Shown here piece after piece: positions 38,460 through 58,540 of a stretch of 64,000 bases of DNA. The stretch comes from an uncultured bacterium. Lineage in GTDB: Bacteria > Chloroflexota > UBA5177 > JANWHV01. The notes below the pieces were generated by a model. The model was not told the DNA's origin. It saw nothing but the letters and a program-made list of their open reading frames with translations, and searched no databases. The position numbers and the translations under genes are program-made. The stretch covers positions 704,001 to 768,000 of the forward strand of contig CAVSOU010000010.1 in assembly GCA_963729625.1 (NCBI GenBank), read 5' to 3'. Position 1 is the first letter of the stretch; each line of letters opens with the position of its first letter.

Positions 38460-38489
38460 TTGATACCGTACCGGGGTATGGGATATACT
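38460..38489 (+). promoter_or_regulatory. promoter with CsoR/CstR-type operator 1
   Basis: TTGATA-N18-TATACT enclosing ATACCGTACCGGGGTATGGGAT (38463-38484). Confidence 0.75.
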
Positions 38490-38561
38490 GTGTGCAGTGA
38501 AATACTTGCATGGTAGGACGCGGCGCGGTGCGCCTCGACCACGCTTGAAAGGAGCAGAACT

Positions 38562-38765
38562 GTGCGACAGCGTTGGGCATGGGCTAACAACCGGGTGGCA
38601 CCGCGCATACGCGTCGCGCTGGGGTTTGCCCTCGTCGCAGTCGGCTTCGCGGTAGGAGGAAGCACAATCGGTGTCGGATTGACGCTGCTCGGCGTCTTGG
38701 TGTTCCGGACGGGTACTTGTGGCCGCTGTGTGTTTGGCTCCTGCCCGCCGAGACGCGCCCGCTAG
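38562..38765 (+). CDS. YgaP/DUF2892-like small membrane protein
   Basis: GTG after GAAAGGAG; RIRVALG, two TM helices, TGTCGRC. Confidence 0.7.
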   Translation: MRQRWAWANNRVAPRIRVALGFALVAVGFAVGGSTIGVGLTLLGVLVFRTGTCGRCVFGSCPPRRAR

Positions 38766-38848
38766 CAGGTTGTGTTGCACAGTCAGGAGACGGAGGCGCT
38801 GACAGCGGCAGCCGCTGGAGACTTGATGAGGAGAAGAGGAGCAAGCAG

Positions 38849-39202
38849 ATGACTCAGTTCAGGCAATTGACGGGATCGACGGGGCCAACCGGGGCGGCGG
38901 AGGTGGAAGTGACCGCTGCGTACACCCTGCAACAGCAGGGCGCACAGCTGATTGACGTGCGCGAAGCGGATGAGTTTCGTTCGGGCCACGCGGTAGGAGC
39001 ACGGAACATACCTCTGGGCGAGCTACGCAGCCGTCTGCAGGAGCTGCAAGCCGGCGCGACGGTGCTGCTTATCTGCGAGAGCGGCAGCCGCAGCTGGTCG
39101 GCGCAGCTTCAGCTGCAGCACCTTGGCGTGCCCGACGTGCGGAACGTGATCGGCGGCACCAGCGCTTGGCGGTGGGCGCGGTTGCCCACGCGGGCCGGAT
39201 AG
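38849..39202 (+). CDS. single-domain rhodanese
   Basis: LIDVREADEFRSGHAVGARNIPL, active loop CESGSRS, GGTSAW. Confidence 0.92.
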   Translation: MTQFRQLTGSTGPTGAAEVEVTAAYTLQQQGAQLIDVREADEFRSGHAVGARNIPLGELRSRLQELQAGATVLLICESGSRSWSAQLQLQHLGVPDVRNVIGGTSAWRWARLPTRAG

Positions 39203-39269
39203 CCTGCGGAGCCGCGCGTCACTTGGCAACGCGCGACAGAGCACGATAGAAGGGAAGACAGGTGAGGCT

Positions 39270-39680
39270 ATGGCGACCGAAATTGCAAGCGCGCTTGGCA
39301 TCGGCAAGCGCTTGAACCTGACCTTTGACACGGCCATGGAGCGGACCCGGGCGGCGCTCACGGCGCAGGGTTTCGGCGTGCTGACGGAAATCGATATTCG
39401 AAAGACGCTGAAGGAGAAGCTGGACGTGGACTTCCGGCGGTACACCATTCTGGGCGCGTGTAATCCGCCGTTTGCCCACCGCGCCCTCTCCGCGGACCTC
39501 GAAGTTGGGCTGCTGCTCCCCTGCAATGTCGTGTTGTATGAAGATGGTGCCGGCACTGTCGTGCGGGCCATGGACCCGCAAGCCGTGCTGGGACTGATGA
39601 CCAATCCGGCGATCACCAGCCTGGCCCGCGAGGTGCGCGACCGCCTGGTGCGCGCCTTCGCCACCCTTGACGACGACTGA
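39270..39680 (+). CDS. DUF302 domain protein
   Basis: GFGVLTEID..TLKEKL, YTILGACNP, GLLLPCNVV. Confidence 0.93.
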   Translation: MATEIASALGIGKRLNLTFDTAMERTRAALTAQGFGVLTEIDIRKTLKEKLDVDFRRYTILGACNPPFAHRALSADLEVGLLLPCNVVLYEDGAGTVVRAMDPQAVLGLMTNPAITSLAREVRDRLVRAFATLDDD

Positions 39681-39755
39681 CCACCAGCGCGTGCAGGTGC
39701 CTGCGACGCGGAACGATTGCCTACTGACAGCCGAACGCGCTGTCGAAAGGAGGAG

Positions 39756-40208
39756 TTGGCCCTGACACGCGCCAAGGCTGTGTTGCTGCTCTCGATTGCA
39801 CTTCTCGCGTGCGGTCTCCTGGTGCCGGCCTCTGCCGCCGGCGCGAGCCAGACGATCACCGGCGCCAAGGTCAGCGTGCCGGGAGGCAGCTATCGCGCCG
39901 TTACGCCGCGCGAGCTGGCGACGATGCTGGCCCACAAGAACTTCCTGCTGGTGAACGTGCACTACCCCTATGCCGGCGAACTGCCACATACCGATCGCTT
40001 CCTGCCTTACGACACGATCGGCCAGCACCTTTTGTCCCTGCCCGCGAACAAGCATGCCATGGTCGTACTGTACTGCCGCAGCGGGCGCATGAGCGATATC
40101 GCGGCGCGCACACTCGTCCGGCTCGGTTTCAACAACGTCTGGCATCTGGCGGGCGGCATGGATGCCTGGCAGCAGCAGGGCTACAAGCTACTCTTTCTCT
40201 TCCGCTGA
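39756..40208 (+). CDS. rhodanese-like protein with predicted signal peptide
   Basis: Hydrophobic N-terminus ending ASA/AGA; LVNVH.PY, YCRSGRMS, LAGGMDAW; start codon uncertain. Confidence 0.85.
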   Translation: MALTRAKAVLLLSIALLACGLLVPASAAGASQTITGAKVSVPGGSYRAVTPRELATMLAHKNFLLVNVHYPYAGELPHTDRFLPYDTIGQHLLSLPANKHAMVVLYCRSGRMSDIAARTLVRLGFNNVWHLAGGMDAWQQQGYKLLFLFR

Positions 40209-40260
40209 CCGGTCGTAACGACGGTCCGCTCCGCACGCCTGCACGCGAAAGGATCTTACC

Positions 40261-40680
40261 GTGAAGCTCCTATCCGGACTATCACTTGTCGCCCTGCTGA
40301 GGGCGCTCTCGGCACAAATCGTTTCCCATCCAACCGCGGTCCCGTGCATACCACGCGCCCGCTTTCTCACCGTTGCCGATTTGGCGGATCTCGACGAATG
40401 CTTTGCGCGCTCTCAGCAGCGGCCGGTCGTCCTGTTCCTCCACGATCCTGGCTGCCCGATCAGTGACGCAGCCTATCGGCAGGTGTCCGGACTCGATGCC
40501 GAGGTCAGGCTGGTCGACGTGCGCACCGGGAGGTCGATCACGCGCGCTGTGGAAGACCGCACCGGCGTGCGCCACGAATCGCCGCAGGTCCTCGTGCTCA
40601 AGAGTGGTCAGGCACTATGGTCGGCATCCCACTACGCCATCACCTCCCGCGCTGTCGAGGCGGCAATACTCGGGACCTGA
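40261..40680 (+). CDS. YtxJ/BrxC (DUF2847) monothiol bacilliredoxin-like protein
   Basis: HDPGCPIS..AY, GVRHESPQVL, WSASHYAIT. Confidence 0.82.
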   Translation: MKLLSGLSLVALLRALSAQIVSHPTAVPCIPRARFLTVADLADLDECFARSQQRPVVLFLHDPGCPISDAAYRQVSGLDAEVRLVDVRTGRSITRAVEDRTGVRHESPQVLVLKSGQALWSASHYAITSRAVEAAILGT

Positions 40681-40888
40681 CAGGCGGGCCGGCACGGCCA
40701 GGTCCTGGGAACGTTGTTATATATGCCGCACTGCGCCGGTTCGAAGAGGTACGCGTACGCGCTGGCTCCTACGCCTCTAGCCCCCCACCATTTGCATCTT
40801 GCATGTATCGGCGTCAAAGCTTTGGATCGTAGTAGCTCGCAGCCAGCGCGTCGAGGTCGATCGGCGAGACGACACGCCCCTCGGACTG

Positions 40889-40936
40889 TTGACATGTAAC
40901 AAATACCATGTATATATAATACATGGTATTTGTTAC
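40889..40936. promoter_or_regulatory. promoter overlapped by a perfect 18-bp inverted repeat (probable repressor operator)
   Basis: TTGACA at 40889; GTAACAAATACCATGTAT-ATATA-ATACATGGTATTTGTTAC (40896-40936) covering TATAAT (40915-40920). Confidence 0.7.
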
Positions 40937-41028
40937 CGCGGCGCTGTGCTTGCGCGTGCTGCCGGCGGCGTCTCGACAAGGTCGGTCCATGCCTGCGCTC
41001 ATCGAAGGGCTGCGGCAACCGTCACTGC

Positions 41029-41346
41029 ATGAATCCGGACGCCCACCGCGTAGAGCCACGGAAGATGGAAAGGACCGCCACACGGGATGAAACGCTTGAT
41101 GCGAGGGAAGCGATCTATGAGCTGCTCTCCACAGACGGCCACACTTATGTGCTGCAGAGCTATGCCCTGATCGTCGATCCCGGCTTGACCCAGGCTGCAC
41201 TGCCCACGCTATCTGGCCGCCTCACGCTGCCGAAGGGATGGCGGTACCGGATGGTCGTTCCGGCGCAGGACCTCGTGCTGAAAGTCACAGGCAAAGCTAC
41301 TGTCCTGCAGGACAGCCTGGACGATACCTATCAGCTGGTGAAGTAG
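41029..41346 (+). pseudogene. hypothetical protein, probably a C-terminal remnant
   Basis: IYELLSTDGHTYVLQSY...LPKGWRYR...VLQDSLDDTYQ looks protein-like; no convincing start or RBS. Confidence 0.45.
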
Positions 41347-41478
41347 CGTGGGGTTGGTCGCCTCCCTCCCCAGGCCACACCGTGGACACGGCGGTATGTG
41401 GCGCAGGACACCGAACATAGGAAGCAAACGGGCTCGTTCAGCAGTACGTGGCCGGTAAGAGTAAGAGGAGGACTGCTG

Positions 41479-42237
41479 TTGCCTCGACCACCTCTGAGCG
41501 AAGCGCAGCTCCAAGCCATGCGCACGCGCATTCTCGACGCCGCGCTCGACATCCTGCTCAAGGAAGGCCCACACGGTCTGACGTCGCGGGCGATCGCGCG
41601 TGCTCTGGGTATTGCTCATATGACCTTGTTCACCTACTTCGAGAACCAGGCAGCCCTCCTCGCGGCGCTGGCAGAGCGGGAAATGGCTCCCATTCGGACA
41701 GACCAGCAGCGTCTCGAACGCCAGGCGGAGGATGGTGATATCGTGCGGGTGATGCGCGACGCACTCGCGCTGTATCCGCGCTTCGCCGCCGAGCACTCCA
41801 GGCTCTTCCAGCTGGCCATGGCGGGCCCCCAGCTCGAAGGCGGCAGCGCTGACCGGGCTCGTGCCCGCTCCCAAACGCACGTCACGCACCTGGCGCGGCT
41901 GGTGCAGGTGGGCATCGCCCGCGGCACGTTTCACCCCCACGATCCCGTGCTGGCTGCTAGCGCGGTCATGGGCATGGTCGCGATGCCGCTGTTGCTGTTT
42001 GCCACCGGCCGTATCGCCTCCGAGGATCAGCGTGATGCGCTGGTGGCCGAGATGCTGGAGGCGGCGCTGCTGTATCTCACCGTCCCACCAGCGGCAGCGG
42101 AAGCGCACGGCGAGCACTGGAATCGACAAGCCGGTTCAAGAACAACCGGTGAACGTCCGCTGAGTCCGGAGGTCAAACCACTGCATGAGCCTGCACGTCG
42201 GGCCGTGGGTCAGAGAAGGACCGGGCCCGACCAGTAG
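41479..42237 (+). CDS. TetR/AcrR family regulator
   Basis: RILDAALDILLKEGPHGLTSRAIARALGIAHMTLFTYFEN; TTG after AGAGGAGGA. Confidence 0.92.
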   Translation: MPRPPLSEAQLQAMRTRILDAALDILLKEGPHGLTSRAIARALGIAHMTLFTYFENQAALLAALAEREMAPIRTDQQRLERQAEDGDIVRVMRDALALYPRFAAEHSRLFQLAMAGPQLEGGSADRARARSQTHVTHLARLVQVGIARGTFHPHDPVLAASAVMGMVAMPLLLFATGRIASEDQRDALVAEMLEAALLYLTVPPAAAEAHGEHWNRQAGSRTTGERPLSPEVKPLHEPARRAVGQRRTGPDQ

Positions 42238-42269
42238 TTGGGCCACCATTCACCAGAAAGAGAGACATC

Positions 42270-44553: not shown

Positions 44554-44747
44554 CGAGACGGTCGGCATCGCATCGGGGCGTGCGACTACCGTGCAGGATG
44601 ACCGGGAGCAGACGGCTGACGGGAGCGCAGGTGCACCGTGCCGATCAGGTGTGCCTGTGCAGATACTCGTCGGGCGACTCCAGGTGCTGGGCTCGGGGTC
44701 CGGGTAACCGCACGATACACAGGTGATCAATTTGGGAAGACACGACA

Positions 44748-44781: not shown

Positions 44782-44806
44782 CGGATGGCCAGTGGCTGGT
44801 TGGGCG

Positions 44807-45151
44807 TCAGTGGGCTGAGACGGCTCCCAGGACCTTGTCCAGCGCTCCCGCCAGCTCGGCCTTTGGGCGAACCCCGACGAACCGCTTCACCTCACGCCCC
44901 TGCTGGAACAACGCCAACGTGGGGATGCCCTGGATGCCGTAGCGCTGCGCCACAGCCGGGCTCTCGTCGACGTTGACCTTCACCGTCCGCACGCGGCCGT
45001 CGTAGGCTTGGGCCAGCTGCTCCACGATGGGGGCCACCATGTGGCAGGGGCCGCACCAGGGCGCCCAGAAGTCGACCAGCACCGGGACCGCGGCCTGCAG
45101 CACCGCGCGATCGAAGCCGCGCTCGTCGGTTGAGATAATGTTTGCGTTCAT
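44807..45151 (-). CDS. trxA: thioredoxin
   Basis: VLVDFWAPWCGPC, KVNVDE, GIQGIPTL; RBS AAGGAG. Confidence 0.96.
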   Translation of the reverse strand: MNANIISTDERGFDRAVLQAAVPVLVDFWAPWCGPCHMVAPIVEQLAQAYDGRVRTVKVNVDESPAVAQRYGIQGIPTLALFQQGREVKRFVGVRPKAELAGALDKVLGAVSAH

Positions 45152-45192
45152 GCTCTTCTCCTTGCTGATAGCTTCTTGCATCTGATACCAGG

Positions 45193-45217
45193 ATTATACC
45201 ATACCCCCCTATGGTAT
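45193..45217 (-). promoter_or_regulatory. CsoR/CstR-type operator 2 with extended -10 (trxA promoter)
   Basis: ATTATACCATACCCCCCTATGGTAT, identical over 25 bp to 58151-58175; reads TGGTATAAT on the minus strand. Confidence 0.85.
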
Positions 45218-45286: not shown

Positions 45287-45883
45287 TTGGCGAACCGCCT
45301 GCCGCGTCAGCCAACCATCAGCAACATCGCCCAAGATGCCGACGACGCGCCGCTGGTCACCCCGCTGACGCCGCCGGGTCCGGCCGACGTCGTGGTGGTG
45401 ACGGCGAAGGCACCTACTGCCCCATCAGGCGACCATCCCGTGCTCTGGCCGGCGCCGGCCGAGGACCTGCGCTACTGGTCCCTGTGCACCCTTGTGGGCA
45501 CGGTGGAGCTGCCTACGGTGGTGAACCGCTTGCCGAACGGCACCACTGACTACGGGTGCCGCGACAACGACGCGACCGCGGTCGATGCCGCCGGCTACTA
45601 CTTCTACGTCGTCGGTCGCGAGTCGCAACGCGCCGCCATTGCGCAGCTGCCCCACGTCACGTTTCTGCCGTTCTCGGCTATCGCGCCGACGGCAATCCAT
45701 TTCCTGTATCTGCGTAACAAACTGGCCAATCCCGACTTCGCCAATGCGGCACAGCGGGTGACGCAGTACAGCAATCCCGCCGCGGCGGCAGCGGCGATGG
45801 GTCCCTACTACCCGCGCGCCGCGGTGTGCGCGCTGAGCACACTCACGAGCAAAGGCGTGCAGGCCTGCCTTGCCCATCCCTGA
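45287..45883 (+). pseudogene. hypothetical protein, probably 5'-truncated
   Basis: Coding-like composition (DLRYWSLCT, MGPYYPR); no RBS or plausible N-terminus. Confidence 0.5.
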
Positions 45884-46040: not shown

Positions 46041-46853
46041 TCAGGCGCTCCCGAGCAGCAAGCGGAGCCCGACCAGCCCGAGGGCCAGGGCCAGGAGCCT
46101 GATAATACGCGGCCCCTTGAGGCGGTTGGACAGGGCAGCACCGGCCTGGGCACCCGGAATCACGCCGATGGCCAGGGCGACCGTCTGGCCCACCACCCCG
46201 TGGAAGTCACCTCGCGCGGCGTGCACGAGGGAACCGGCGCCCGAGGTCATGGCCAGGATGAAGTGCGAGGTCGCGGTCGCCACGTGCGGGGGAATGCCGA
46301 GCAGCTGCACCATCGCCGGCACATGGATAATGCCGCCGCCGATACCTAGCAGGCTGGAGAGGAAGCCGACCGCGCCGCTCAGGCCCAGACCGAGCCATCG
46401 GTTGTAGGTATAGGTGTAGGTCGTGCCCGTCGCGTCGACCAGCGTGCGCTGGGTCAGCCCACTTGTACTCCCTGCCGGCCTGGCCTCAGTTTGGGGACGG
46501 AGCACGAGCCAGAGCGCGATCAGGATCAACAGCGCGCCGAGCAGCTTGTCGAATGGCCCGCGACTGAAGAGTCCGGTGGCAAACACGCCGATCACGGCGC
46601 CGGGAATGGTCGCCAGGGCGAAAAGGCGGCCAGTCTGGTAGTCGATGCGCCGCATGCGCGCGTAAGCCAGGCTGCCTGAGACGGCGTTGGCACAGACCAC
46701 GGCCAGCGAGATGGTGGTGATGGTCAGCGGTGACTCGTGCGGGTAGAGCAAGAGCAACGCGGGAACCAGCACAAACCCGCCGCCCGCCCCGATCAAGGTG
46801 CCGTAGGCGCCCACGCCGATGCCTAGCAGGATCAGCAGCAGCACCTGCATCAT
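46041..46853 (-). CDS. sulfite exporter TauE/SafE family protein
   Basis: GTLIGAGGGFVLVP, repeated as SSLLGIGGGIIHVP; ATATS, GAQAGA. Confidence 0.92.
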   Translation of the reverse strand: MMQVLLLILLGIGVGAYGTLIGAGGGFVLVPALLLLYPHESPLTITTISLAVVCANAVSGSLAYARMRRIDYQTGRLFALATIPGAVIGVFATGLFSRGPFDKLLGALLILIALWLVLRPQTEARPAGSTSGLTQRTLVDATGTTYTYTYNRWLGLGLSGAVGFLSSLLGIGGGIIHVPAMVQLLGIPPHVATATSHFILAMTSGAGSLVHAARGDFHGVVGQTVALAIGVIPGAQAGAALSNRLKGPRIIRLLALALGLVGLRLLLGSA

Positions 46854-47341
46854 GTACGATGCCAGTCGAGCATCACACGACGCCGGCCAGGTGCTGCAAG
46901 AGAAGGCTCTGCGTGGCCGGCGCTGGCGCCGAAGCTGTAGCCTGCGGCCACCACCGACGGCGTATCGTTGATGGCCGTGCCCGCCCACGGCCCAAAGCCG
47001 TGCGCCGAGAAGCCGGACAGCCGGCCGATGGGCGGGAAGATCAGCACGCCCGCCACGTTGAGCAGGAAGATGGTGTTACGGAGCACGATGCCGAGCAGAA
47101 TGGCGATCGCCGCTGCGCCGACGACTGGCGCCAGGTAGCCGAGCGCGGTCGCGGCACCGGCAAGGCCGGCGCACAGCGCTACCCTAGGCAGAGAACGGGC
47201 GAGCAGTGCACGGGTCTTTCGCGCTGGGCGTTGGTCTCGGCCAGCAGGCGGGGTGGTCTTCGCCGACACGCTAGTGCTGGGCGAGCTGAAGCTGGCCGAA
47301 GAGTGGGAGGGGGAAGACCTCGCCGGGCGGTGTTTCAACAT
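46850..47341 (-). pseudogene. collapsed YeiH-like (putative sulfate exporter) gene
   Basis: AIAILLGIVLRN joined directly to TIFLLNVAGVLIFPPIG...WAGTAINDTPSVVAAG; middle and C-terminus missing. Confidence 0.7.
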
Positions 47342-47982: not shown

Positions 47983-48219
47983 TTATCCACAGGTGTTGCA
48001 GGAACAGGAGCCACCGCTGCATGCACTGTAGTCACTGGCGGAATCGCCGGCTGCGTAGCTGTCCCCAGCTGAGCCAACGCTCGCGAACGAGGAGACAAGC
48101 TTGCGCACCTTTGGACTGCGACAGTGCCGGCACACAACAGCATCAGACAACTTGCGCTGCTGAACGAACAGTTCGAACCGCTGCGAACAATCGCTGCAAG
48201 TATACTCGTAGACTGGCAT
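47983..48219 (-). CDS. FmdB family zinc-ribbon protein
   Basis: MPVYEYTCSDC..FE...CRHCRS..RKLVSSF, Cys/Ser/Gly-rich tail; RBS AGGAGG. Confidence 0.9.
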   Translation of the reverse strand: MPVYEYTCSDCSQRFELFVQQRKLSDAVVCRHCRSPKVRKLVSSFASVGSAGDSYAAGDSASDYSACSGGSCSCNTCG

Positions 48220-48427: not shown

Positions 48428-48456
48428 AGCATACCATACCTACCTACGGTATACAA
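48428..48456 (-). promoter_or_regulatory. promoter with CsoR/CstR-type operator 3
   Basis: ATACCATACCTACCTACGGTAT (48431-48452); minus strand TTGTAT-N17-TATGCT. Confidence 0.7.
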
Positions 48457-48577: not shown

Positions 48578-48599
48578 ATACCATACCATGGTATGGTAT
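48578..48599. promoter_or_regulatory. CsoR/CstR-type operator 4
   Basis: Perfect 22-bp palindrome ATACCATACCATGGTATGGTAT upstream of the PIG-L gene. Confidence 0.8.
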
Positions 48600-48719
48600 T
48601 AGGTAGTGCGGTGCGGGTTGGGCACGACGTCGCTGATCGCTTCGGTCGGTGCCCCTGCGAAAGTAGGCGAGCAGGTGGGTTCCCTGTCGCGCAAACAGCA
48701 CCGCCGGGGGAGAGCGACC

Positions 48720-49439
48720 GTGAAGACGCTGTTACCGCCGGCACGAAGTGTGCTCGCCGTGTGTGCTCATCCTGACGATGAGTCCTTTGGTCTGGGCGCG
48801 ATCCTGGCCCGTTTTCAACAGGACGGCACGCGGACGGCCGTGCTGTGCTTCACCCAGGGCGAAGCGTCGACCCTGGGTGCCGGCGATAGCGATCTGGCGG
48901 TCGTCCGCAAGGGAGAGCTAGAGGCCGCCGCCCAGTTGCTGGGCATCGAGCGCACGCAGCTCCTTGCCTACCCGGACGGCGCCCTGGCTGACTCGCCCCT
49001 CGACGAGCTGTCCGCGCACGTCGCGCACATGGCGACGACCGTCGCGGCGGACCTGCTGCTGGTGTTCGACGAGGGAGGGATCACCGGGCACCCCGACCAC
49101 AGGCGCGCCACCGAGGCCGCTCTGGTCATCGGCCTGTCTGCCGAGCTGCCGGTGCTTGCCTGGGCTCTGCCTCGTGCCGCGTCCACTGCACTCAACACGG
49201 AATTCGGCACCACGTTTTTCGGCCGTGCTCCGCGCGACCTGGACATCGCCCTCACGGTCGATCGATCGGTGCAGCTGCAGGCCATCGCCCGACACGTCAG
49301 CCAGACAGGGGACAATCCTGTACTGTGGCGGCGGCTCGAATTGCTGGGCTCGGCCGAATATCTGCGGTATCTGCACCGTGCCGCCGACGGGGGAGGCGCG
49401 CCGGCGGAACGCAGAAGAGATAGTGCCCCGGGAGGATGA
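48720..49439 (+). CDS. PIG-L family deacetylase (BshB/Mca-like)
   Basis: CAHPDDESFG, TQGEAS, YPDG, GITGHPDH, HVSQ. Confidence 0.9.
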   Translation: MKTLLPPARSVLAVCAHPDDESFGLGAILARFQQDGTRTAVLCFTQGEASTLGAGDSDLAVVRKGELEAAAQLLGIERTQLLAYPDGALADSPLDELSAHVAHMATTVAADLLLVFDEGGITGHPDHRRATEAALVIGLSAELPVLAWALPRAASTALNTEFGTTFFGRAPRDLDIALTVDRSVQLQAIARHVSQTGDNPVLWRRLELLGSAEYLRYLHRAADGGGAPAERRRDSAPGG

Positions 49440-49820: not shown

Positions 49821-49850
49821 TTGCTACCATACGGGGGTATGGTATATACT
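49821..49850 (+). promoter_or_regulatory. promoter with CsoR/CstR-type operator 5
   Basis: TTGCTA-N18-TATACT enclosing CTACCATACGGGGGTATGGTAT (49824-49845). Confidence 0.8.
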
Positions 49851-49931: not shown

Positions 49932-50138
49932 ATGATGAATCAGTTGGTAGCGTTCATGAATGGTCAGGCCGGTCGAGGACTGCGCGGCGTGCTCGGCCTG
50001 GCGCTCATAGTGGTCGGGCTTGCGGGTGTGCACGGAACCGGCGGCGCCGTATTGGCCGTCATTGGCGTGGTACCGCTGGCCATGGGTGCCTGGGGACGCT
50101 GCTTGTTCGAGCCGTTCGCCGCGCATCGTCCCGCCTGA
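49932..50138 (+). CDS. YgaP/DUF2892-like small membrane protein
   Basis: FMNGQAGRGLRGVLGLALI, GVVPLAMGAWGRCLF; RBS AAGGGAG. Confidence 0.85.
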   Translation: MMNQLVAFMNGQAGRGLRGVLGLALIVVGLAGVHGTGGAVLAVIGVVPLAMGAWGRCLFEPFAAHRPA

Positions 50139-50279
50139 TCGGTTGGCGATCGACTCCTCCGTGCAACCGGAGCCTGCGACACGCATCCCGTCCGAGAGAC
50201 CGAACCGCCCGAGTGCTTGCAGAGCCACTCGATCCACCAACAAGACGCACATCAGCAGACGGTGAGAAAGGAATCACAC

Positions 50280-50627
50280 ATGTTCAAGCAGCTTCTGTCA
50301 TCCCTGGTTGGTACCCAGGATTCCACCATGAATGTCGACGTCGCACAGGCTCATGCCCTGCAGCAGGAGGGCGCGCAGCTCATCGACGTGCGGGAAACGA
50401 GTGAATTCCGCTCCGGCCACGCCAAGGGTGCCCGCAGTATTCCGCTCAGCCAGCTGCAGCAGCGCTTCGGCGAGATCAAGTCCGACAGGCCGGCGCTCGT
50501 GATCTGCCAGAGCGGCAGTCGCAGCCGGTCCGCGCAATCGATTCTGTTGCAGAAGCAGCTCACGGACGTACGCAACGTGCTCGGCGGCACGAGCGCCTGG
50601 CGGCGCGCCGGGCTACCAATGCAGTAG
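50280..50627 (+). CDS. single-domain rhodanese
   Basis: LIDVRETSEFRSGHAKGARSIPL, CQSGSRS, GGTSAW; close paralogue of 38849..39202. Confidence 0.93.
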   Translation: MFKQLLSSLVGTQDSTMNVDVAQAHALQQEGAQLIDVRETSEFRSGHAKGARSIPLSQLQQRFGEIKSDRPALVICQSGSRSRSAQSILLQKQLTDVRNVLGGTSAWRRAGLPMQ

Positions 50628-50716: not shown

Positions 50717-51694
50717 GTGACCGCGCAGGATGTGTGGGCTGGTGCCCTTGCCGAGTGGTCCATCCCTAAGGTCATTCTGGCCGCGGCGCCTGCATCTCCC
50801 TGGGATCTCTTGGTGGACCAGTTTGCCGAGAAGGCCGCGCGCGCCGTGCGCAATCCAACGCCATCCCACGATCGCGCGCGCGAAGCGCTGCCGGCCGGTG
50901 GCTCCGTCCTCGACGTGGGGTGCGGCGCCGGCGCCGCCTCCCTGCCCCTGCAGGATCGCGCGGGTCGGGTGATGGGGATCGATCCCTCGCCGGAGATGCT
51001 GTACGCTTTTCGCTCCTTGGCGGGTGCGCGGGGGGTGTCGGTGGCCACTGTCGCCGGCACCTGGCCGGAATCGTCCACGCACGTGGATCAGGCCGACGTC
51101 GTGGTCTGCCACCACGTCGCCTATAACGTGCCCGATCTCGGGTCGTTCGCTCTCGCACTGGGCGAGCATGCCCGGCATCGTGTGGTCCTGGAGCTGACGG
51201 TCGAGCATCCGCTGCACCATCTCAACGAACTCTGGCTGCGCTTCCACGACCTCAAACGACCCGACCGGCCCACAGTCGACGACGCGCTCGCCCTCCTGCG
51301 CGAAACCGGAATCAAGCCGCACTGGGAGTCCTGGCAGGGGCCGCCGGGCCCGTGGTTCTGGCGACGGCAGGACCTCGTCACCTGGGTCCGGACGCGCGTC
51401 TGCCTGAAAAAAGACCAGGACGCGGAGCTTGATGCCGCGCTGGACGCTGAAATCACACGCGACGACGATGGACGTTGGTGCCTGCCCGGCAGGGCAGTTG
51501 CGACCGTTTGGTGGGATCGCCCACATTGGTCCGCGCAGTTGAGCGGTCAATCTCTTCATGACGGTGTGCTCTTGGCGCTCGGCGGATATGCACCGATCAT
51601 GGCGGTCACACGATACCTTGCTGAGCTGCCTTATCCTGCCCGCACACTGTCGCATGTAAAGAAAGGTCCCCCATGTCTGATTCTCTTCGCCTAG
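50717..51694 (+). CDS. class I SAM-dependent methyltransferase
   Basis: VLDVGCGAG, GIDPSPEML, ADVVVCHHVAYNV; the last 55 aa or so look like unrelated read-through. Confidence 0.85.
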   Translation: MTAQDVWAGALAEWSIPKVILAAAPASPWDLLVDQFAEKAARAVRNPTPSHDRAREALPAGGSVLDVGCGAGAASLPLQDRAGRVMGIDPSPEMLYAFRSLAGARGVSVATVAGTWPESSTHVDQADVVVCHHVAYNVPDLGSFALALGEHARHRVVLELTVEHPLHHLNELWLRFHDLKRPDRPTVDDALALLRETGIKPHWESWQGPPGPWFWRRQDLVTWVRTRVCLKKDQDAELDAALDAEITRDDDGRWCLPGRAVATVWWDRPHWSAQLSGQSLHDGVLLALGGYAPIMAVTRYLAELPYPARTLSHVKKGPPCLILFA

Positions 51695-53373
51695 TGATCG
51701 TCGGCGGCGTCGCCGGCGGCGCCAGCGCCGCGGCCCGCGCGCGCAGGCTCTCCGAGGACGCCAGCATCGTGCTCTTCGAGCGCAGCCCCCATGTCTCCTT
51801 CGCCAACTGCGGGCTGCCTTACCATATCGGTGGCGTGATCGAGGAGCGAGAACGCTTGCTGATCCAGACGCCCGAGAGTCTGTACCAGCGCTTCAACATC
51901 GACGTCCGGGTGAACACCGAGGTGGTGTCCATCGATACCGCGGCGCAGGTGGTGGTGGCCAGGAACCTGAAGACGGGGGAGGAAACCCGGGAGCCCTATG
52001 ACGCGCTCGTGCTGAGCCCGGGCGCGTCCCCGATCGTGCCACCTATCCCAGGCGTTGACGACAGGCGCATCTTCACCCTGCGGAATATCGAGGACATGGA
52101 TGGCATCCTTGGCGCTCTCGCCACCCCAGGCATGGCTCGGGCTCTCGTGGTGGGGGCTGGCTACATCGGGCTGGAATTGGCGGAACAGCTCCGGCACCGG
52201 GGTCTGGCTGTGGCCGTGGTCGAACGGTTGCCTCACGTGTTGGGCGTGGCGGACGCGGAGATGACCTTCCCCCTGCAGGAGGAGTTGGTCCGGCAGGGGG
52301 TGGATTTGCGCCTGAACCAGGCCGTGACCGCCTTCCAGAGGGAGGGTGACGGATTGATAGCGATCCTGAACAACGGCGATCGTATTGCCTGCGATATGGC
52401 CGTGATGAGCGTGGGTGTGCGTCCGGAAACGCGACTGGCGCGAGAAGCGGGACTCGCGCTCGGCAGGACCGGCGGCATTCTGGTGGACGACCAGATGCGT
52501 ACCAGCATGCAGAATATATACGCCGTGGGTGACGCGGTGGAGATAAGAGACTTCGTGAGCGGCGATCAGGCGCTGATCCCGCTGGCCGGGCCCGCTAATC
52601 GTCAGGGCCGCATAGCGGCGGAGGTGATCTTTGGCCGCGCCAGCCGGTACAAAGCGACCCAGGGCACGGCTATCTGCAAGGTCTTCGACCTCACGTTCGC
52701 CATGACCGGGCTGTCTGAAGCCTCATTGCAACGCAAGGGCTTACCCTACCGCCGCATCTACGTGCATCCCGCCGACCACGCGACCTACTACCCCGGCGCG
52801 CACGCCATCTCGCTCAAGCTCCTCTTCGACCCGGAGAGCGGACGGATCCTCGGGGCACAGGCGGTGGGCGAGGCGGGTGTCGACAAGAGAATTGACGTCC
52901 TCGCGGTGGCGCAGCGCGCCGGCATGACCGTCTTCGATCTGGAGGATCTCGAGCTCTGCTATGCTCCGCCCTTCGGCAGCGCCAAGGATGTGGTGAACAT
53001 GGCAGGCTTCGTGGCGTCCAACGTGCTTCGCGGCGATGTGGCGCTCTGGGAGCCGGAGGAACTGGCCTCACTGACCGATCACCAGACGCTGTTGGACGTG
53101 CGCAGTGTCCGGGAGTATGCGCTTGGCACGATCCCCGGTGCCACCTGCTTGCCGGTGGACGACCTGAGGGATCACCTGGACGACCTGCCGAAGGACAAGG
53201 AATTGCTCGTCCTCTGCCAGGTGGGTCTGCGCGGCTATGTGGCAGCCCGTCTGCTGACCCAACATGGGTTCACCGTGCGCAATCTCTCTGGCGGCTATCG
53301 CCGGTACACCATGTGGAAAGGCACTCAGGCCGTGCAGCCCATACGTGAAGCTGCGCTCGCGAGCGCGGTTTGA
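51673..53373 (+). CDS. CoA-disulfide/persulfide reductase with C-terminal rhodanese domain (CDR-RHD)
   Basis: GGVAGGASAA, SFANCGLPY, GAGYIGLE, IYAVGD, YYPGA, CYAPPF, rhodanese loop LCQVGLRG. Confidence 0.95.
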   Translation: MSDSLRLVIVGGVAGGASAAARARRLSEDASIVLFERSPHVSFANCGLPYHIGGVIEERERLLIQTPESLYQRFNIDVRVNTEVVSIDTAAQVVVARNLKTGEETREPYDALVLSPGASPIVPPIPGVDDRRIFTLRNIEDMDGILGALATPGMARALVVGAGYIGLELAEQLRHRGLAVAVVERLPHVLGVADAEMTFPLQEELVRQGVDLRLNQAVTAFQREGDGLIAILNNGDRIACDMAVMSVGVRPETRLAREAGLALGRTGGILVDDQMRTSMQNIYAVGDAVEIRDFVSGDQALIPLAGPANRQGRIAAEVIFGRASRYKATQGTAICKVFDLTFAMTGLSEASLQRKGLPYRRIYVHPADHATYYPGAHAISLKLLFDPESGRILGAQAVGEAGVDKRIDVLAVAQRAGMTVFDLEDLELCYAPPFGSAKDVVNMAGFVASNVLRGDVALWEPEELASLTDHQTLLDVRSVREYALGTIPGATCLPVDDLRDHLDDLPKDKELLVLCQVGLRGYVAARLLTQHGFTVRNLSGGYRRYTMWKGTQAVQPIREAALASAV

Positions 53374-53794
53374 GGCTAGGCGATCTATAGCAATTCACCT
53401 ATCCCAGCGCCGTCTCACGCCACCAGAGAGAATGTGCCCCATGCACACTTCCACTCCCAACCAGATCAGTGAGTGGGCAACCTTGACGGCAAGCAATGGC
53501 GAGGCTCTGACATTATCGCATTCCGCTAGGCCGACGATGGCTTGGTTTGCGATTGCAGTCGCATCGCGGCACTCGCGTGGCTGCGGCAGTCCAAGGAGCT
53601 TCGGACAACGCATACCGCCAAGGAAGCCGCGCAAGGCCGCTGGAGGGAGGTCATCAGAGCTACGAATGTCAGACGCCACGTTCACGCGCCCATCTCTGTT
53701 TGCCGCAACATTGCTCGGCCTTTCGCATCAGTATTTGTTGCCGGCAAGGATGCGATTCTGCTGGCGTGACGCAAGTCACAGCCACCGAGTGTGC

Positions 53795-54751
53795 CTAGAG
53801 TGACAGCGTCGTGCCCACGCTGTTGGCGACGAATGCGTCGGGCATCGTCCGAGCAATCTGGTGCGTGGCGATCCAGCCTGTGCAGTGCCCGGGCATCACA
53901 AATCTCGGGCCAATAGCCTGCAGCGCCGCGATCGTCGGCGGAATACGCGACTCGAACATGGCGCCGCTGAGATGGAAGCCGCCAACCACCGCGTATATCG
54001 CCGGAACACCAGTCAACAGCTGAGCGTTCCGGATCACGTTGATGATGCCGGAATGTCCGCAGCCTGTCACGATGACCAGGCCCTTGTCGCGCACGTTGGC
54101 AATAGCACACTGATCATCCATGATCAAGGGGTCGGGCTCCCAGACACCCTGACGCCTGGCTTGATGGATCGGAAAGCCCGTCTCGAACCGGGTGGTGCGG
54201 GCTACCTCGCCCGAGACGAGTAGCATGTCGTCCACCAGCATCGAGGGGCCAGCCTCCTCGATCAGCGCGATGTGCTCTCGCTCCAGGTCCGATTTTCGGG
54301 GCGGAGGCAGGCGCTGCAACTCCTCGCCCGTGGGCAGGATCACGCGTCGTTCGAGATACGCGTCGGGGTGCAGGATCAGGGGAACGTTGCGCGAGCCGAG
54401 GCGATCAATCAGGCCGGGGAGACCCATGGCGTGGTCGGCATGGCCGTGACTGAGGACTATCGCCTGAATATCGCGCGCGTTGATCCCCAGCACATCCAGG
54501 TTGCGCAGGATGCCCGTCCGGCTCACTCCGGTGTCGAACAGGACGACACCCGTGCGACCATCACGTTCCACCTCGATCAGGGCTGAGAAGCCGTGTTCGG
54601 CGAGCGGCGTCTCATGTTCAAAGAAATCGAGACGCAGCGGAAAACGCCGGACCACCTCGTTTCCGGCCATCAAGACGTCAAACGTGTTGTCCATGACCAG
54701 CGTGACGCGGACGGCGTCGACCGGAGACAGGGAAATCGTTTGCTGAGGCAT
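53795..54751 (-). CDS. MBL-fold metallo-hydrolase (COG1237-like)
   Basis: AEHGFSALI, LFDTG, LSHGHADH, TGCGHSGIINV, GGFHL, PGHCTG. Confidence 0.92.
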   Translation of the reverse strand: MPQQTISLSPVDAVRVTLVMDNTFDVLMAGNEVVRRFPLRLDFFEHETPLAEHGFSALIEVERDGRTGVVLFDTGVSRTGILRNLDVLGINARDIQAIVLSHGHADHAMGLPGLIDRLGSRNVPLILHPDAYLERRVILPTGEELQRLPPPRKSDLEREHIALIEEAGPSMLVDDMLLVSGEVARTTRFETGFPIHQARRQGVWEPDPLIMDDQCAIANVRDKGLVIVTGCGHSGIINVIRNAQLLTGVPAIYAVVGGFHLSGAMFESRIPPTIAALQAIGPRFVMPGHCTGWIATHQIARTMPDAFVANSVGTTLSL

Positions 54752-54957
54752 TGCATTGCTCCTCCGGACTTCACATGATCCTTTGTCCACAGCATAGCGA
54801 ATCAACCGCAAGCCTCATATCCGGCACCGTAGAAGCGCCTCTGCATGGCTAGGACATGCCGGGGCGCTGCAACCAAGACCGCCTGTCGGAGCTTGTCGCC
54901 TGTTCCCACAAGGTGCCGCACGTTGACGTCGCGCGGGCGTAGCCTGTACAGTTGTAA

Positions 54958-54971
54958 TTGGCATATGCCAA
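54958..54971. promoter_or_regulatory. palindromic site upstream of the DUF134 gene
   Basis: Perfect TTGGCATATGCCAA, 18 nt upstream of the ATG. Confidence 0.6.
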
Positions 54972-54989
54972 GAACCTGGGGGGTTGGTT

Positions 54990-55316
54990 ATGGCTCGCCC
55001 GATCATGTGTCGCAGGATCAACTGCTCGCCTGCCGCCCGCTATTTCAAGCCGCGAGGCATTCCCATGACGGAGCTTGAAGAGGTGTTATTGACACTGGAC
55101 GAGCTCGAAGCAGTGCGACTGGCCGATCGCCATGGCCTCTATCAAGAAGCGGCCGCCGCGCAGATGGGCGTGTCGCGCCAGACGTTCGGCAACATCCTGA
55201 CCAGCGCCCATCGCAAGGTGGCGGAGGCGTTGCTCGACGGTAAGGCGCTTCGCATCGCGGATGCACCGCACTGGCCCCCCTCGATCGCTCGTCAACCCAA
55301 TCTGGAGGAGTCATGA
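54990..55316 (+). CDS. DUF134 predicted DNA-binding protein
   Basis: MARP..CRRI, YFKPRGIP, DELEAVRLAD..GLYQE.AA.QMGVSRQTF. Confidence 0.93.
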   Translation: MARPIMCRRINCSPAARYFKPRGIPMTELEEVLLTLDELEAVRLADRHGLYQEAAAAQMGVSRQTFGNILTSAHRKVAEALLDGKALRIADAPHWPPSIARQPNLEES

Positions 55317-55690
55317 AAGTCTGTTTCCCTGTGCTGCATCCCCAAGGTCTGGACTCGGTCATCAGTCGCCACTTCGGTACGGCACCCCACTTCATGGTGT
55401 ACGACACCGATAGACAGGAACCGTCCGTCGTGTCGGCTGAAGGCGACGGCTCCTGCCAGTGCGGATCGCCGCTGCTAACAAACCTCGACGTCGACGCCGT
55501 GGTCTGCGGAGGCATCGGTGCCGGTGCCATAAAGCGGCTGTCCGCACGCGGTATCAAGGTCTATGCAACCGAAGCCGCGACGGTGGCTCTGTCGTTGGGT
55601 CTGCTCACACAGGGTCTGCTCACAGAGGTGATCGACGGCACCTGCCACGCCGATCACGGCCAAAGCACTCACGGCTGCCATGCGCAGTGA
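55313..55690 (+). CDS. NifB/NifX-family domain protein
   Basis: HFGTAPHF, VVCGGIGAGA, GIKVY, His/Cys tail; ATGA overlap with the DUF134 gene. Confidence 0.88.
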   Translation: MKVCFPVLHPQGLDSVISRHFGTAPHFMVYDTDRQEPSVVSAEGDGSCQCGSPLLTNLDVDAVVCGGIGAGAIKRLSARGIKVYATEAATVALSLGLLTQGLLTEVIDGTCHADHGQSTHGCHAQ

Positions 55691-56002
55691 GAGCACGCAA
55701 CGCGCTGGTTGTTGCGTGGTACGGGCCCACGCCGCTGGTCAAGAACCCAGCCGCCTGGTTTTGGTGCTGGGGAGAGGCCGGACGCGTCGCGGGGTACGAA
55801 CAAGGGCCAGCGGCTGGATGTGCAGGGACCGACTGAGCTCGCTTCCGAGGATCGATTGCGTTGCACGCCTCGGTCGTACGGTGGAACAGTGGTTTCTAAC
55901 TGCACTGAGCGTACAAACTAGTTCAGCCCATCGGGCTTGCTGCGCGTCGCCGATGGGCCTCGTGGAGAGGCAGGCGGCGCGCTGAAAGATGATGAAGGAC
56001 AG

Positions 56003-56995
56003 ATGGCCAAGATCGATGAGCGCGGCACAACTACCCCAACACGACAAGATCGAACTCAGGCTGAATCCCCATCAACCCGAGATAGTCGCGGGAAAGCACG
56101 ACAAGCGCACCAAGATGGCCAGGCGGCCCAAACTGGTCGCGGCAAACAGCGTCGTGAGGCGATGAGACGCGCCACGCAGCCGTGGTGGCGGCGCCGTGTG
56201 GCGATCGGTGGCGGGGGGATCGTGGTTCTCGCGATCGTGGTCACCGTCTTCGTCGCCTTCTCCCATCAAGGTGGCTCAACTGGTGACACGCAGATAGGCA
56301 CCCTCGCGCCGACCGACCTCGTGCAGAAAGTGGCGACGACCAATCCAGTTATCATCGCGGCGGTTGGCGGCGGCAAGCTGCCGACGGGTGACACGCTGCC
56401 TCCGCCAATCCACGCAATCGCAGGCCCTGCGCTCACGGCAAACGGCAAGCCTGAGTTGCTTTTCATCGGCGGTGAATACTGCTCGCACTGCGCTGGCCTG
56501 CGCTGGAGCGTGATCAACGCTCTGGGCCGGTTCGGTACTTTCTCCAATCTGCAGTACATGCGCACGTCGGATGACTATGGCGACCTGGCGACGCTCGACT
56601 TCTACTACAGCGCCTACAGCAGCCCGTACGTGAGTTTCGTGCCGGTGGAGAACAGAGACCGCGCCGCGAATGAGCTTCAGCCCCTCACCACCGACCAAGC
56701 GCAGCTGCTCGACACGGTTGGCGGCAGCACATACCCACTGCTGGACATCGCCGGCCAGTATACGAACGACGCGAAAGGTGCCTATGGAGGCGGCTATGAC
56801 TTCAGTGTCCTGGATGGGAAGGACTGGTCGCAGATTGTAGGCGCCTTGAGCACTGCCGGCGATCCGATCACGGAAGGAATAGTCGGCACCGGGAACTACA
56901 TCACCGCTGCCCTCTGCCGAGCGACCCACGACCAGCCGAGCAGCGCGTGCAATGCTCCCACGATCCAACGGCTGAAGAAGCAGCTGGCACCGTAG
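56003..56995 (+). CDS. DUF929 family membrane-anchored thioredoxin-like protein
   Basis: TM anchor, NGKPELLFIGGEYCSHCAGLRW...ALGRFGTFSNL, NYITAALC...QPSSAC. Confidence 0.82.
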   Translation: MAKIDERGTTTPTRQDRTQAESPSTRDSRGKARQAHQDGQAAQTGRGKQRREAMRRATQPWWRRRVAIGGGGIVVLAIVVTVFVAFSHQGGSTGDTQIGTLAPTDLVQKVATTNPVIIAAVGGGKLPTGDTLPPPIHAIAGPALTANGKPELLFIGGEYCSHCAGLRWSVINALGRFGTFSNLQYMRTSDDYGDLATLDFYYSAYSSPYVSFVPVENRDRAANELQPLTTDQAQLLDTVGGSTYPLLDIAGQYTNDAKGAYGGGYDFSVLDGKDWSQIVGALSTAGDPITEGIVGTGNYITAALCRATHDQPSSACNAPTIQRLKKQLAP

Positions 56996-57236
56996 CCGTG
57001 CGATGGCGGCGACCCGGCTATGCATGCCACGCCGATCTCAACTGCACGCACGCGTACGGCGCCACGGGAGCCCTGATGAGACGGCACGCGACTGGATAGC
57101 GCTCGCACTGCAGCCGGGGATAGAGGACAAGCGTGCGAGACCCGTTGTACGCTGCTACGACGCTCAAGACAACTGGCGCAAGACGTGTGTTCGGGCTGGA
57201 CAGATCGACATACCACCAATCGGGTAGCCCAAGGGC

Positions 57237-57593
57237 TCACGGAGAAGCTGTCATGCCCGCCAACACAGTGGATAAGGCGTCGACGCCGCCCTGATAGTAG
57301 GCGACCCATTGCACCGGCGGGTGCTCTTGCTGCTGGGACGCGGCAAGGTGGCCGCCCCAATCAGCCACCAGGGCCTCCACGCCGACACGAAGGTCGCGTG
57401 CATCCCGGGCTCGCGCGAGGCGCTTTGCCGCCAGGAGGGCGTACAGCTGCCCTTCGTCATACTTGAGGCCGCCGGTCATTCGTCCGCTCTTCTGCAGCTG
57501 GCAGAGCGCGACGCCCCCGGTCTTGCCCGCAAACGATCGCTCGACTGCTGCAACTCGTTCCTCGATGAACAACTGGACGGCGTGTGTCTCCAT
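57237..57593 (-). CDS. hypothetical protein
   Basis: ATG after GAGGGA; motifs ALCQLQK, KYDEG, WVAYYQGG; same strand as, and downstream of, the CstR-like gene. Confidence 0.65.
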   Translation of the reverse strand: METHAVQLFIEERVAAVERSFAGKTGGVALCQLQKSGRMTGGLKYDEGQLYALLAAKRLARARDARDLRVGVEALVADWGGHLAASQQQEHPPVQWVAYYQGGVDALSTVLAGMTASP

Positions 57594-57848
57594 GAGGCCG
57601 TCCCTCGCCATTCTCCGCCGGAGCAGTGTGTGAGCGTAACTGCGCGGTGCCCGACACTTACGCGCTCTTGGACCGTGCCGTAGCCGCAGGTACGTCGGCA
57701 TGTCGTCCTCTCACGTGGTGGGGTGCGCAGGCGGAACGGTGTCACCCGCAGCCTATGGGGCCCGAGGTCCGCCTTCGTCTTGTTCTACATCGTCGGGGTA
57801 GCGCTCAGCAGGCTGCGAGCCAGCGCGGAAGCCCGATAGCCCTGGACG

Positions 57849-58115
57849 CTAGATGTGGGTCAGCAAAGCGATGCTGCCGGCAATCGCGCGCCGCTCCTTC
57901 TCGGGCACGGAGACGAGGCACTCGTCCACGCTGTCAGCTACCACCGCGGCGGCGACCTTCTCCAGTGCCGCGCGCGCTGCCAGTATCTGGGTGAGAATCT
58001 GGTCGCACTGGCGTCCCTCGCGTACCATCTTGCCGATGCCGTGCACTTGCCCCTCAACACGAGCGAGGCGATCCAGGACGCTGTCGTTGGCCTCCCTCCT
58101 TGATCGTTCTTCCAT
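57849..58115 (-). CDS. CsoR/RcnR family repressor, CstR-like (Cys-x-Cys without His)
   Basis: RLARVEGQVHGI.KMV, C37 in RQCDQILTQI, ADSVDEC where copper CsoRs have DHLxxC. Confidence 0.9.
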   Translation of the reverse strand: MEERSRREANDSVLDRLARVEGQVHGIGKMVREGRQCDQILTQILAARAALEKVAAAVVADSVDECLVSVPEKERRAIAGSIALLTHI

Positions 58116-58150
58116 GACCTTGCCTTCCTTTCAGCCGTGCTTACGCCGCT

Positions 58151-58179
58151 ATTATACCATACCCCCCTATGGTATTCAA
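58151..58179 (-). promoter_or_regulatory. autoregulated promoter with operator 6
   Basis: Minus strand TTGAAT-N17-TATAAT with ATACCATACCCCCCTATGGTAT (58154-58175) filling the spacer. Confidence 0.88.
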
Positions 58180-58516: not shown

Positions 58517-58540
58517 CAGCCGCTCGGGCAGACGCGAGTC

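Follow-up and report, generated by a model that had tools for sequence, protein, structure and literature searches.

A 64 kb stretch of DNA (the window) from a metagenome-assembled genome (MAG) of the phylum Chloroflexota carries six copies of a 22-bp pseudo-palindrome, a gene, cstR1, for a repressor of the CsoR family, and a sulfide/sulfite detoxification neighbourhood of the CstR type, with three rhodaneses, a coenzyme A (CoA)-persulfide-reductase-like enzyme, a sulfide:quinone reductase (SQR) and a TauE exporter. Taking the model as a whole, the six sites are probably operators of CstR-like, thiol-based CsoR-family repressors. They appear to belong to a genome-wide regulon of about ten operators, in which three old paralogs (cstR1, cstR2 behind osmC, and cstR3) share one operator family. 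An earlier sequence-only reading of the window had described a regulon of six operators under a single persulfide sensor.

Putative operator sites and promoters in the window

The 22-bp pattern matches with two mismatches or fewer at 38463 (two mismatches), 45196 (none), 48431 (one), 48578 (none), 49824 (one) and 58154 (none), and at no other position in the 64 kb. These are the six positions claimed in the sequence-only reading, and no match was obtained across 100 dinucleotide-preserving shuffles (mean 0.00). On a weight matrix built from the six sites, which is a circular measure for these sites, they score 31.2-37.4 bits and the next-best position in the window 8.5 bits. In view of this gap and of the zero matches expected by chance, the six sites are cleanly split from the background. 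They are the following:

38463..38484 (+): operator 1, ATACCGTACCGGGGTATGGGAT, in the spacer of TTGATA-18-TATACT (38460-38489)
45196..45217 (no strand): operator 2, in the spacer of TTTATA-18-TATAAT (45222-45193), the trx promoter on the minus strand; it also faces the gene of a 198-aa protein on the plus strand
48431..48452 (-): operator 3, by eye in the spacer of TTGTAT-17-TATGCT, under the threshold of the promoter tool
48578..48599 (+): operator 4, perfectly palindromic (ATACCATACCATGGTATGGTAT), in front of the PIG-L gene, with a weak promoter match, TTGCCG-17-TATGGT, by eye
49824..49845 (+): operator 5, in the spacer of TTGCTA-18-TATACT (49821-49850)
58154..58175 (-): operator 6, in the spacer of TTGAAT-17-TATAAT (58179-58151), which is the cstR1 promoter

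Operators 2 and 6 have the same 22-mer; a further 3 bp agree on the left and none on the right, for a total of 25 bp, as reported before. A half-site, ATACCATA, is common to four window sites and the cstR1 operator. Beyond the promoter hexamers, the flanks of the operator copies are unrelated, one duplicated pair excepted.

A consensus promoter scan of positions 38301-58300 (20 kb), scored as hexamer matches out of 12, returned nine promoter-like sites, where shuffled sequence gave 3.1 on average. The three best matches in the 20 kb, with 10 of 12 each, are the promoters of operators 6, 1 and 2, and the operator fills the spacer in all three, as it does in the 9-of-12 promoter of operator 5. 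The proposal that most copies fill a -35/-10 spacer is thus borne out by the scan at four sites; at 48431 and 48578 a like layout is seen by eye only, under the tool threshold. Operator 6 ends 39 bp upstream of the cstR1 ATG at 58115, inside the cstR1 promoter, so that one copy does lie in front of the repressor, as had been proposed, and cstR1 is predicted to be autoregulated.

Candidate repressors and target genes

The product of cstR1 scores 74.9 bits against the CsoR/RcnR family profile (PF02583, DUF156; gathering cut-off 22.8) and is a member of this family. In alignments, the Cys pair of 6ahx, InrS, Geobacillus thermodenitrificans CsoR and Streptococcus pneumoniae CstR falls on Cys37 and Cys66 of this protein, and both residues are invariant in 8 of 8 aligned genus-level sequences. 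Position 62 is Ser in cstR1, His in InrS, G. thermodenitrificans CsoR and 6ahx, and Asn in S. pneumoniae CstR. In terms of the W-X-Y-Z motif, cstR1 is an x-C-x-C protein, with both Cys and no His at Y, which agrees with the description in the sequence-only reading. Its alignment to S. pneumoniae CstR reaches only E 3.5e-9.

The genome that holds the window (G000, with contigs C10 and so on) contains five PF02583 genes, three of the x-C-x-C type, all on C10, and two of the C-H-C type. The x-C-x-C genes are:

57849..58115 (-): cstR1, CsoR-family repressor of 88 aa (PF02583; Cys37, Ser62 at the Y position, Cys66)
C10:930445-930753: cstR2, downstream of osmC (Ser at the Y position)
C10:1058946-1059227: cstR3 (Gly at the Y position)

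The best orthologs, found in two genomes of the same genus (G001 or G003), are 62% (cstR1), 82% (cstR2) and 76% (cstR3) identical, versus 48-62% among the paralogs of G000. Since orthologs are closer than paralogs, the triplication predates these species. With paralogs of this age, cross-talk or partition of the operators are both possible.

Two long open reading frames (ORFs), 57938-58516 (-) and 58169-58600 (+), cross the cstR1 promoter and are probably not genes. Two fragments in the interval from cstR1 to sqr are gene debris: one is the C-terminal part of a 3-hydroxyisobutyrate-dehydrogenase-like NAD_binding_11 domain (58316-58498, -), the other the C-terminal ~60 aa of a peroxiredoxin (58570-58755, +). 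Divergent from cstR3 (C10:1059791-1062910, L039:4791-7910) are genes for an MvhD/FlpD-like protein and an 898-aa HdrA/GltD-like flavoprotein, with a weak second motif, CGGCCCTACCGGGGTATGGTAG (12.5 bits), between them and cstR3.

One C-H-C paralog, at C11:267153-267542 (L002), is followed by an HMA/P-type (CopA-like) ATPase. It is preceded by the G/C-rich ACCCCACCTGGGGTGGG, within the fuller upstream sequence TTGACACCCCACCTGGGGTGGGCTATGAT, whose core equals the TtCsoR site quoted in PMC10318464. Copper thus appears to be sensed separately, by this C-H-C CsoR adjoining a CopA-type ATPase. The second C-H-C paralog (C8:505673-505963) has no metal gene adjoining.

Genes in the island were called by Pfam and NCBIfam scans of all ORFs of at least 85 aa from 36 to 60.5 kb, plus chosen small ORFs. 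According to these scans and to structure matches, the genes behind the operators are those listed in the sequence-only reading:

38562..38765 (+): small membrane ORF of 67 aa, first ORF past operator 1, with a weak YgaP-like_TM match (E 0.007, below cut-off)
38717..39202 (+): rhodanese (Pfam/NCBIfam), likely start ATG 38849 with a GAGGAG-rich ribosome binding site
39270..39680 (+): DUF302 protein (PF03625, 87 bits)
39717..40208 (+): second rhodanese (Pfam/NCBIfam)
40261..40680 (+): YtxJ/BrxC-like monothiol redoxin (PF11009, 73.6 bits; TIGR04019, 77.5 bits versus a cut-off of 77.25)
44807..45181 (-): thioredoxin (Pfam/NCBIfam), likely start ATG 45151 behind AAGGAG
45287..45883 (+): conserved hypothetical protein of 198 aa, beside operator 2
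47983..48219 (-): FmdB-family zinc-ribbon protein of 78 aa (TIGR02605, 52 bits), with a leader of ~200 nt from operator 3
48606..49439 (+): PIG-L/LmbE-family deacetylase, likely start GTG 48720, under the cut-offs of the BshB, MshB and Mca models
49932..50138 (+): YgaP-like transmembrane protein of the DUF2892 type (PF11127, E 2.7e-7)
50217..50627 (+): third rhodanese (Pfam/NCBIfam)
50717..51694 (+): class I S-adenosylmethionine (SAM)-dependent methyltransferase (Pfam/NCBIfam)
51673..53373 (+): CoA-disulfide reductase-rhodanese fusion (CDR-RHD) of the Npsr / CoA-persulfide reductase type, matching Npsr (3nta, E 5e-190) and the Enterococcus faecalis 'Coenzyme A-persulfide reductase' (8a56, E 1e-160)

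Two context genes have no operator upstream:

46041..46988 (-): TauE/SafE sulfite exporter (Pfam)
59040..60497 (-): SQR (3hyv, E 1.8e-40)

The 198-aa protein has no functional lead, because it belongs to no Pfam or NCBIfam family, its 60 homologues are all unnamed (some with a longer N-terminus), and Foldseek returned only uncharacterised structures (6ans, 3u07, 2p3y; query TM-score of 0.44 or less) for its AlphaFold model, which has a mean predicted local distance difference test (pLDDT) value of 71.8. A link of the YtxJ/BrxC-like and PIG-L genes to bacillithiol was considered and dropped, since G000 has no BshC match and its best match to the BshA model scores 93.8 bits versus a cut-off of 273.7; the genome being 87% complete, this is no proof that bacillithiol is absent.

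The neighbours of tauE include a partial gene for a YeiH-type PF03601 membrane protein (46853-47341, -) and an ORF of the LysR type in which only the helix-turn-helix (HTH) part is present (47415-47867, +). In G001 (L124) yeiH, tauE, an operator and the cstR1 ortholog are intact and adjacent, and the island of G000 therefore looks rearranged. An operator is also missing from two other gene groups of the window. One, inside the island, consists of a TetR-family regulator and, after it, an 818-aa MMPL transporter (41398-44726, +). The other is a cluster for a DUF134 protein (predicted DNA-binding), a NifX/NifB-like Nitro_FeMo-Co domain protein and a DUF929 protein (54984-56992, +), which has a promoter-like site at 54923-54952 and no obvious tie to the regulon.

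Sites elsewhere in the genome and in relatives

The genome-wide matrix scan recommended in the sequence-only reading revealed four more sites outside the window and brings the total in G000 to about ten. Because a reversed-genome control peaked at 21.3 bits, only scores of about 25 bits or more were trusted. The site C10:931429 lies upstream of osmC-cstR2 (operator ATACCGTACCGGGGTATCGGAT with TTGATA...TATACT), C10:1059241 directly upstream of cstR3 (operator AGACCATACGGGGGTATGGGAT with TTGAGA-18-TATAGT), and C14:38951 upstream of a second thioredoxin. All three x-C-x-C paralogs are thus preceded by an operator. The fourth site, C10:937774 (L036:10775-10796), scores 20.6 bits and was kept despite this borderline value because it is nearly identical to C10:931429; it is part of a ~100-140 bp duplicate of the osmC-cstR2 promoter region, which makes its function doubtful. 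This site is located between a PLD-like gene and a 367-aa ORF without family. In G001 a single site is shared by the PLD-like gene and its divergent neighbour osmC-cstR2, so that G000 seems to have gained ~6 kb (FG-GAP and HTH-AAA-TPR genes) at this point.

When each genome site is oriented to its gene, 8 of the 10 have TTG (TTT at trx1) 2-3 bases 5' of the operator and a TA(T/C)nnT hexamer that forms with the last two bases of the operator; the PIG-L and C10:937774 sites do not fit this layout. Given this overlap, operator and promoter make up one unit of roughly 30 bp, of the form TTGnnA-CC(A/G)TA(C/G)-N4-GTATGG-TATAnT.

Lower-scoring candidates were left aside. For instance, C7:458650 (L038:3151-3172), with the perfect palindrome CCACCATACCATGGTATGGTGG, scores 17.7 bits and lacks the outer ATAC/GTAT bases. 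Its inner half-sites match the operator; the gene downstream of it encodes an ABATE/zf-CGNR regulator, and an AhpC-type peroxiredoxin is close by. The matches at C2:15085, C3:7070, C8:208192 and C10:352159 score 14-16 bits, under the trusted range.

The motif, (A)TACC(A/G)TAC-N4-GTATGGTA(T), has a counterpart in Thermus thermophilus HB8. Barrows and Van Dyke selected the site of TTHA1953 by REPSA, with the consensus TACNNTACNNNNGTANNGTA, which has two TAC/GTA triplets per half-site and a 4-bp centre whose length matters (PMC10318464). TTHA1953 is a CsoR-family, CstR-like repressor of sox genes that also controls dispersed promoters, with thioredoxin, methyltransferase and small-membrane-protein genes among its targets. 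It binds DNA in the reduced form, probably as an octamer, and loses DNA affinity on disulfide formation, while NaHS in vitro gave no release (PMC10318464). The motif fits this consensus, in support of the sequence-only interpretation. Against the 20-bp palindrome TACNNTAC-N4-GTANNGTA, with at most one mismatch, G000 has 9 matches (2 with none and 7 with one) and its reversed control 4 (0 and 4). Each of the 9 is a predicted site; the operator of cstR3 departs from the palindrome at 2 positions.

The likeness to TTHA1953 described here is one of operator architecture and of regulon; no Thermus locus is among the best 80 loci of a contig-wide search with a CstR-like query. Both systems have a dispersed regulon with the same three kinds of protein in it (thioredoxin, methyltransferase, small membrane protein), and both genomes have a second, C-H-C CsoR with a distinct site of the ACCCCACCTGGGGTGGG type. 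However, the targets in G000 are rhodaneses, DUF302 and a CoA-persulfide-reductase-type enzyme, as against the sox genes of Thermus. In addition, most sites in G000 are close to a regulator gene, the regulator is apparently autoregulated and three paralogs are present, and most sites have a run of at least 4 G or C in the centre, a feature that the Thermus sites lack.

With the CstRs of Staphylococcus aureus, E. faecalis and Streptococcus the system shares the x-C-x-C motif, the predicted repression of rhodaneses and a CoA persulfide reductase, the proximity of SQR and TauE, and a pseudo-palindromic operator with ATACC...GGTAT ends that overlaps the promoter of the regulated genes, as expected of a CstR-type operator; the core operator of Streptococcus mitis is given as ATATACCCTTATGGGGTATAT (PMC8643695). 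It differs from them in its longer operator with doubled TAC/GTA half-sites, in the number of promoters (about ten, against one or two divergent operons), in sqr and tauE being outside operator control, in its three paralogs and in its phylum. Actinomycete cluster-3 candidates (Streptomyces coelicolor CsoR/CstR and Rv1766; PMC8643695) also have the x-C-x-C motif, and the more distant relatives among the best 80 loci are mostly Actinomycetota (Solirubrobacterales, Acidimicrobiia, Micromonospora, Corynebacterium). The likeness here is one of motif, and in contrast to G000 only one actinomycete locus (L075) among the best 80 has the doubled TAC/GTA motif.

Forty relatives were compared, of which G001-G004 are of the same genus (G002 is 83% and G004 90% complete). 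Close cstR1 homologues (E 1e-23 or better) occur among the 40 only in G001 and G003, and G002 and G004 have no CstR-like match. The TTHA1953 consensus, with at most one mismatch, matches 7 times in G001 (control 3), 4 in G003 (4), once in G002 (3) and not at all in G004 (4). The extended 22-bp pattern, with at most two mismatches, matches 9 times in G000 (control 0), 5 in G001 (2), 3 in G003 (0), none in G002 (2) and 2 in G004 (2); the other 36 genomes have 0-4 matches, about the control level. As these genomes are kin and few, the counts are support and not statistics. An observation apart is a perfect 22-bp match, ATACCATAGCGTGGTATGGTAT, in another genome of the phylum (G031:C410:31294-31315, L134).

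By Pfam of the flanks, the G001 sites are upstream of a rhodanese (L122), a thioredoxin in a syntenic patatin-trx-HDOD arrangement (L128), OsmC-rhodanese-DUF302 (L130), osmC-cstR2 (L131) and the cstR1 ortholog behind YeiH-TauE (L124); two other matches (L126, L129) look like chance. Those of G003 are upstream of YgaP-like/OsmC (L123) and of cstR3-rhodanese (L125, L127). At the orthologous positions of G001 the motif persists, with different central bases. The sequence-only reading had extended sulfur-stress roles beyond the classical cst operon, and relatives do keep the motif before rhodanese, DUF302, YgaP-like, thioredoxin and cstR genes; for the PIG-L, FmdB-like, methyltransferase and CDR-RHD genes no conservation as targets was seen in relatives.

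Proposed mechanism, alternatives and meaning

From the layout of these sites we infer binding and repression as follows. Reduced CstR-like tetramers, two per site by analogy with CsoR, CstR and TTHA1953, would occupy the promoter spacer. Because this spacer is taken up by the operator, which also contributes bases to both hexamers, RNA polymerase should be blocked when a repressor is bound. Reactive sulfur species would link Cys37 to Cys66 of a neighbouring protomer, DNA affinity would fall and the units would be derepressed. Unit 1 would comprise the small membrane ORF, rhodanese, DUF302, rhodanese and YtxJ-like redoxin genes; unit 2 the thioredoxin gene and possibly the divergent 198-aa gene; units 3 and 4 the genes of the FmdB-like protein and the PIG-L deacetylase, respectively; unit 5 those of the YgaP-like protein, rhodanese, methyltransferase and CoA-persulfide-reductase-like enzyme; and unit 6 cstR1 itself. 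Derepression would supply the cell with sulfurtransferases, thiol redoxins and a persulfide reductase, along with several proteins whose role is unknown.

Several points weigh against this model. G000 is a MAG, 87% complete and with 5% contamination. The sequence-only reading had seen no operator in front of sqr, and the matrix scan agrees, with best scores of -6.3 upstream of sqr, -10.3 upstream of a metallo-beta-lactamase-fold gene and -12.1 upstream of tauE; these genes are thus without operator, unlike those of the S. aureus cst operon. With at most one mismatch, the motif occurs in only 3 of the best 80 distant CstR-like loci, whereas every one of 20 shuffles gave 0 of 80, so that the operator is conserved to a shallow degree. 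The three are L040 (seemingly G003 itself), a Ktedonobacteraceae MAG (L041) and an Actinomycetota MAG (L075). In vitro, NaHS did not release TTHA1953, whose operator is the closest match (PMC10318464). Two thioredoxins, OsmC and the YtxJ-like redoxin fit general thiol or peroxide stress equally. Finally, with three paralogs present, cstR1 need not bind every site in the window.

A regulon in which cstR1 controls all six window operators, with the other paralogs running separate regulons, is the alternative that survives best, and we regard it as rather unlikely. It would be in keeping with the position of cstR1 inside the island, with the 25 bp that its operator has in common with the trx operator and with the ATACCATA half-site of four window sites. 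However, the cstR2 and cstR3 operators are of the same family and architecture, operator 1 shares 21 of 22 positions with the osmC-cstR2 operator and operator 5 shares 19 of 22 with the cstR3 operator, and the paralogs are old, as their identities indicate. With about ten operators and three candidate repressors, the six sites of the window are not all assignable to cstR1, and the single-sensor, six-operator regulon of the sequence-only reading is unsupported in that form. The sites 38463/931429/937774, 49824/1059241 and 45196/58154 look like classes. Paralog-specific classes were set aside, because the G001 cstR1 ortholog has ATACCGTAGGGGGGTAAGGTAG, 937774 is a DNA duplicate and the sites are too few; they can be entertained as a mere hypothesis.

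The operators and repressors may be as described and the signal be general thiol oxidation (peroxide, hypochlorite, disulfide or an electrophile) instead of persulfide specifically. This principal rival to the reactive-sulfur model, which we hold to be improbable without being far-fetched, draws on the two thioredoxins, OsmC and the YtxJ-like redoxin, on the peroxiredoxin remnant that adjoins cstR1 and on TTHA1953, which loses DNA when oxidised and not with NaHS (PMC10318464). The three rhodaneses and the CoA-persulfide-reductase-type enzyme directly behind operators speak against it, as do SQR and TauE in the same island and the conserved targets of G001 and G003, which again include rhodanese and DUF302. 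Moreover, Fakhoury et al. (2021; PMC8643695) assign x-C-x-C clusters with such sulfur-gene neighbourhoods to persulfide sensors. A persulfide inducer can be deduced from gene content only and is unsupported in the form given in the sequence-only reading; TTHA1953, as noted, is not released by NaHS.

Metal sensing (Cu, Ni, Co) through a metal-responsive operator would suit the CsoR/RcnR family and a best NCBIfam match to RicR, which scores 49.7 bits versus a cut-off of 175. Such a signal is very unlikely, because the proteins lack the Y-position His, no metal-efflux gene stands behind any operator and a separate C-H-C CsoR is paired with a CopA-like ATPase behind a different G/C-rich operator. 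That the repeat is no operator but a promoter-associated repeat, a small mobile element remnant or chance is hardly credible: at least one copy, C10:937774, did arise by DNA duplication and not by selection for binding, yet no matches are expected by chance, flanks are unrelated except in one pair, orthologous G001 positions keep the motif with varying centres, and the motif equals a measured protein-binding consensus (PMC10318464).

The model of CstR-like, thiol-based repressors thus places the window among systems of a known kind, the CstR-type regulons, here with an operator of the TTHA1953 type; new are the phylum, the three paralogs and the more than six sites. The limited library searched contained no prior description of such a regulon in Chloroflexi, of TTHA1953 follow-ups, or of CstR paralogs with DUF302. 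A wider proposal can be made only tentatively: the three anciently diverged paralogs might form a multi-input sulfur-stress circuit over about ten promoters, by cross-binding, graded thiol reactivity or mixed tetramers, which would link the TTHA1953 operator type to cst-type targets and draw DUF302, YgaP-like/DUF2892, FmdB-like, PIG-L and methyltransferase proteins and the family-less 198-aa protein into persulfide metabolism. If this is so, regulators of the TTHA1953 type would be genuine sensors of reactive sulfur, and at least two phyla would have them.

The window offers a clean, sequence-readable regulon for a CsoR-family repressor of the thiol-based kind in Chloroflexota. It links the TTHA1953 operator type to rhodanese and CoA-persulfide-reductase targets, and so bears on whether TTHA1953 is a true CstR, a question left open in PMC10318464. 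DUF302 and YgaP-like proteins, the FmdB-like zinc ribbon, the PIG-L protein, the methyltransferase and a DUF1214-like protein become candidates for sulfur-stress roles, and three paralogs on one operator family provide a tractable case of specificity among proteins that bind DNA although they lack a classical motif for it.

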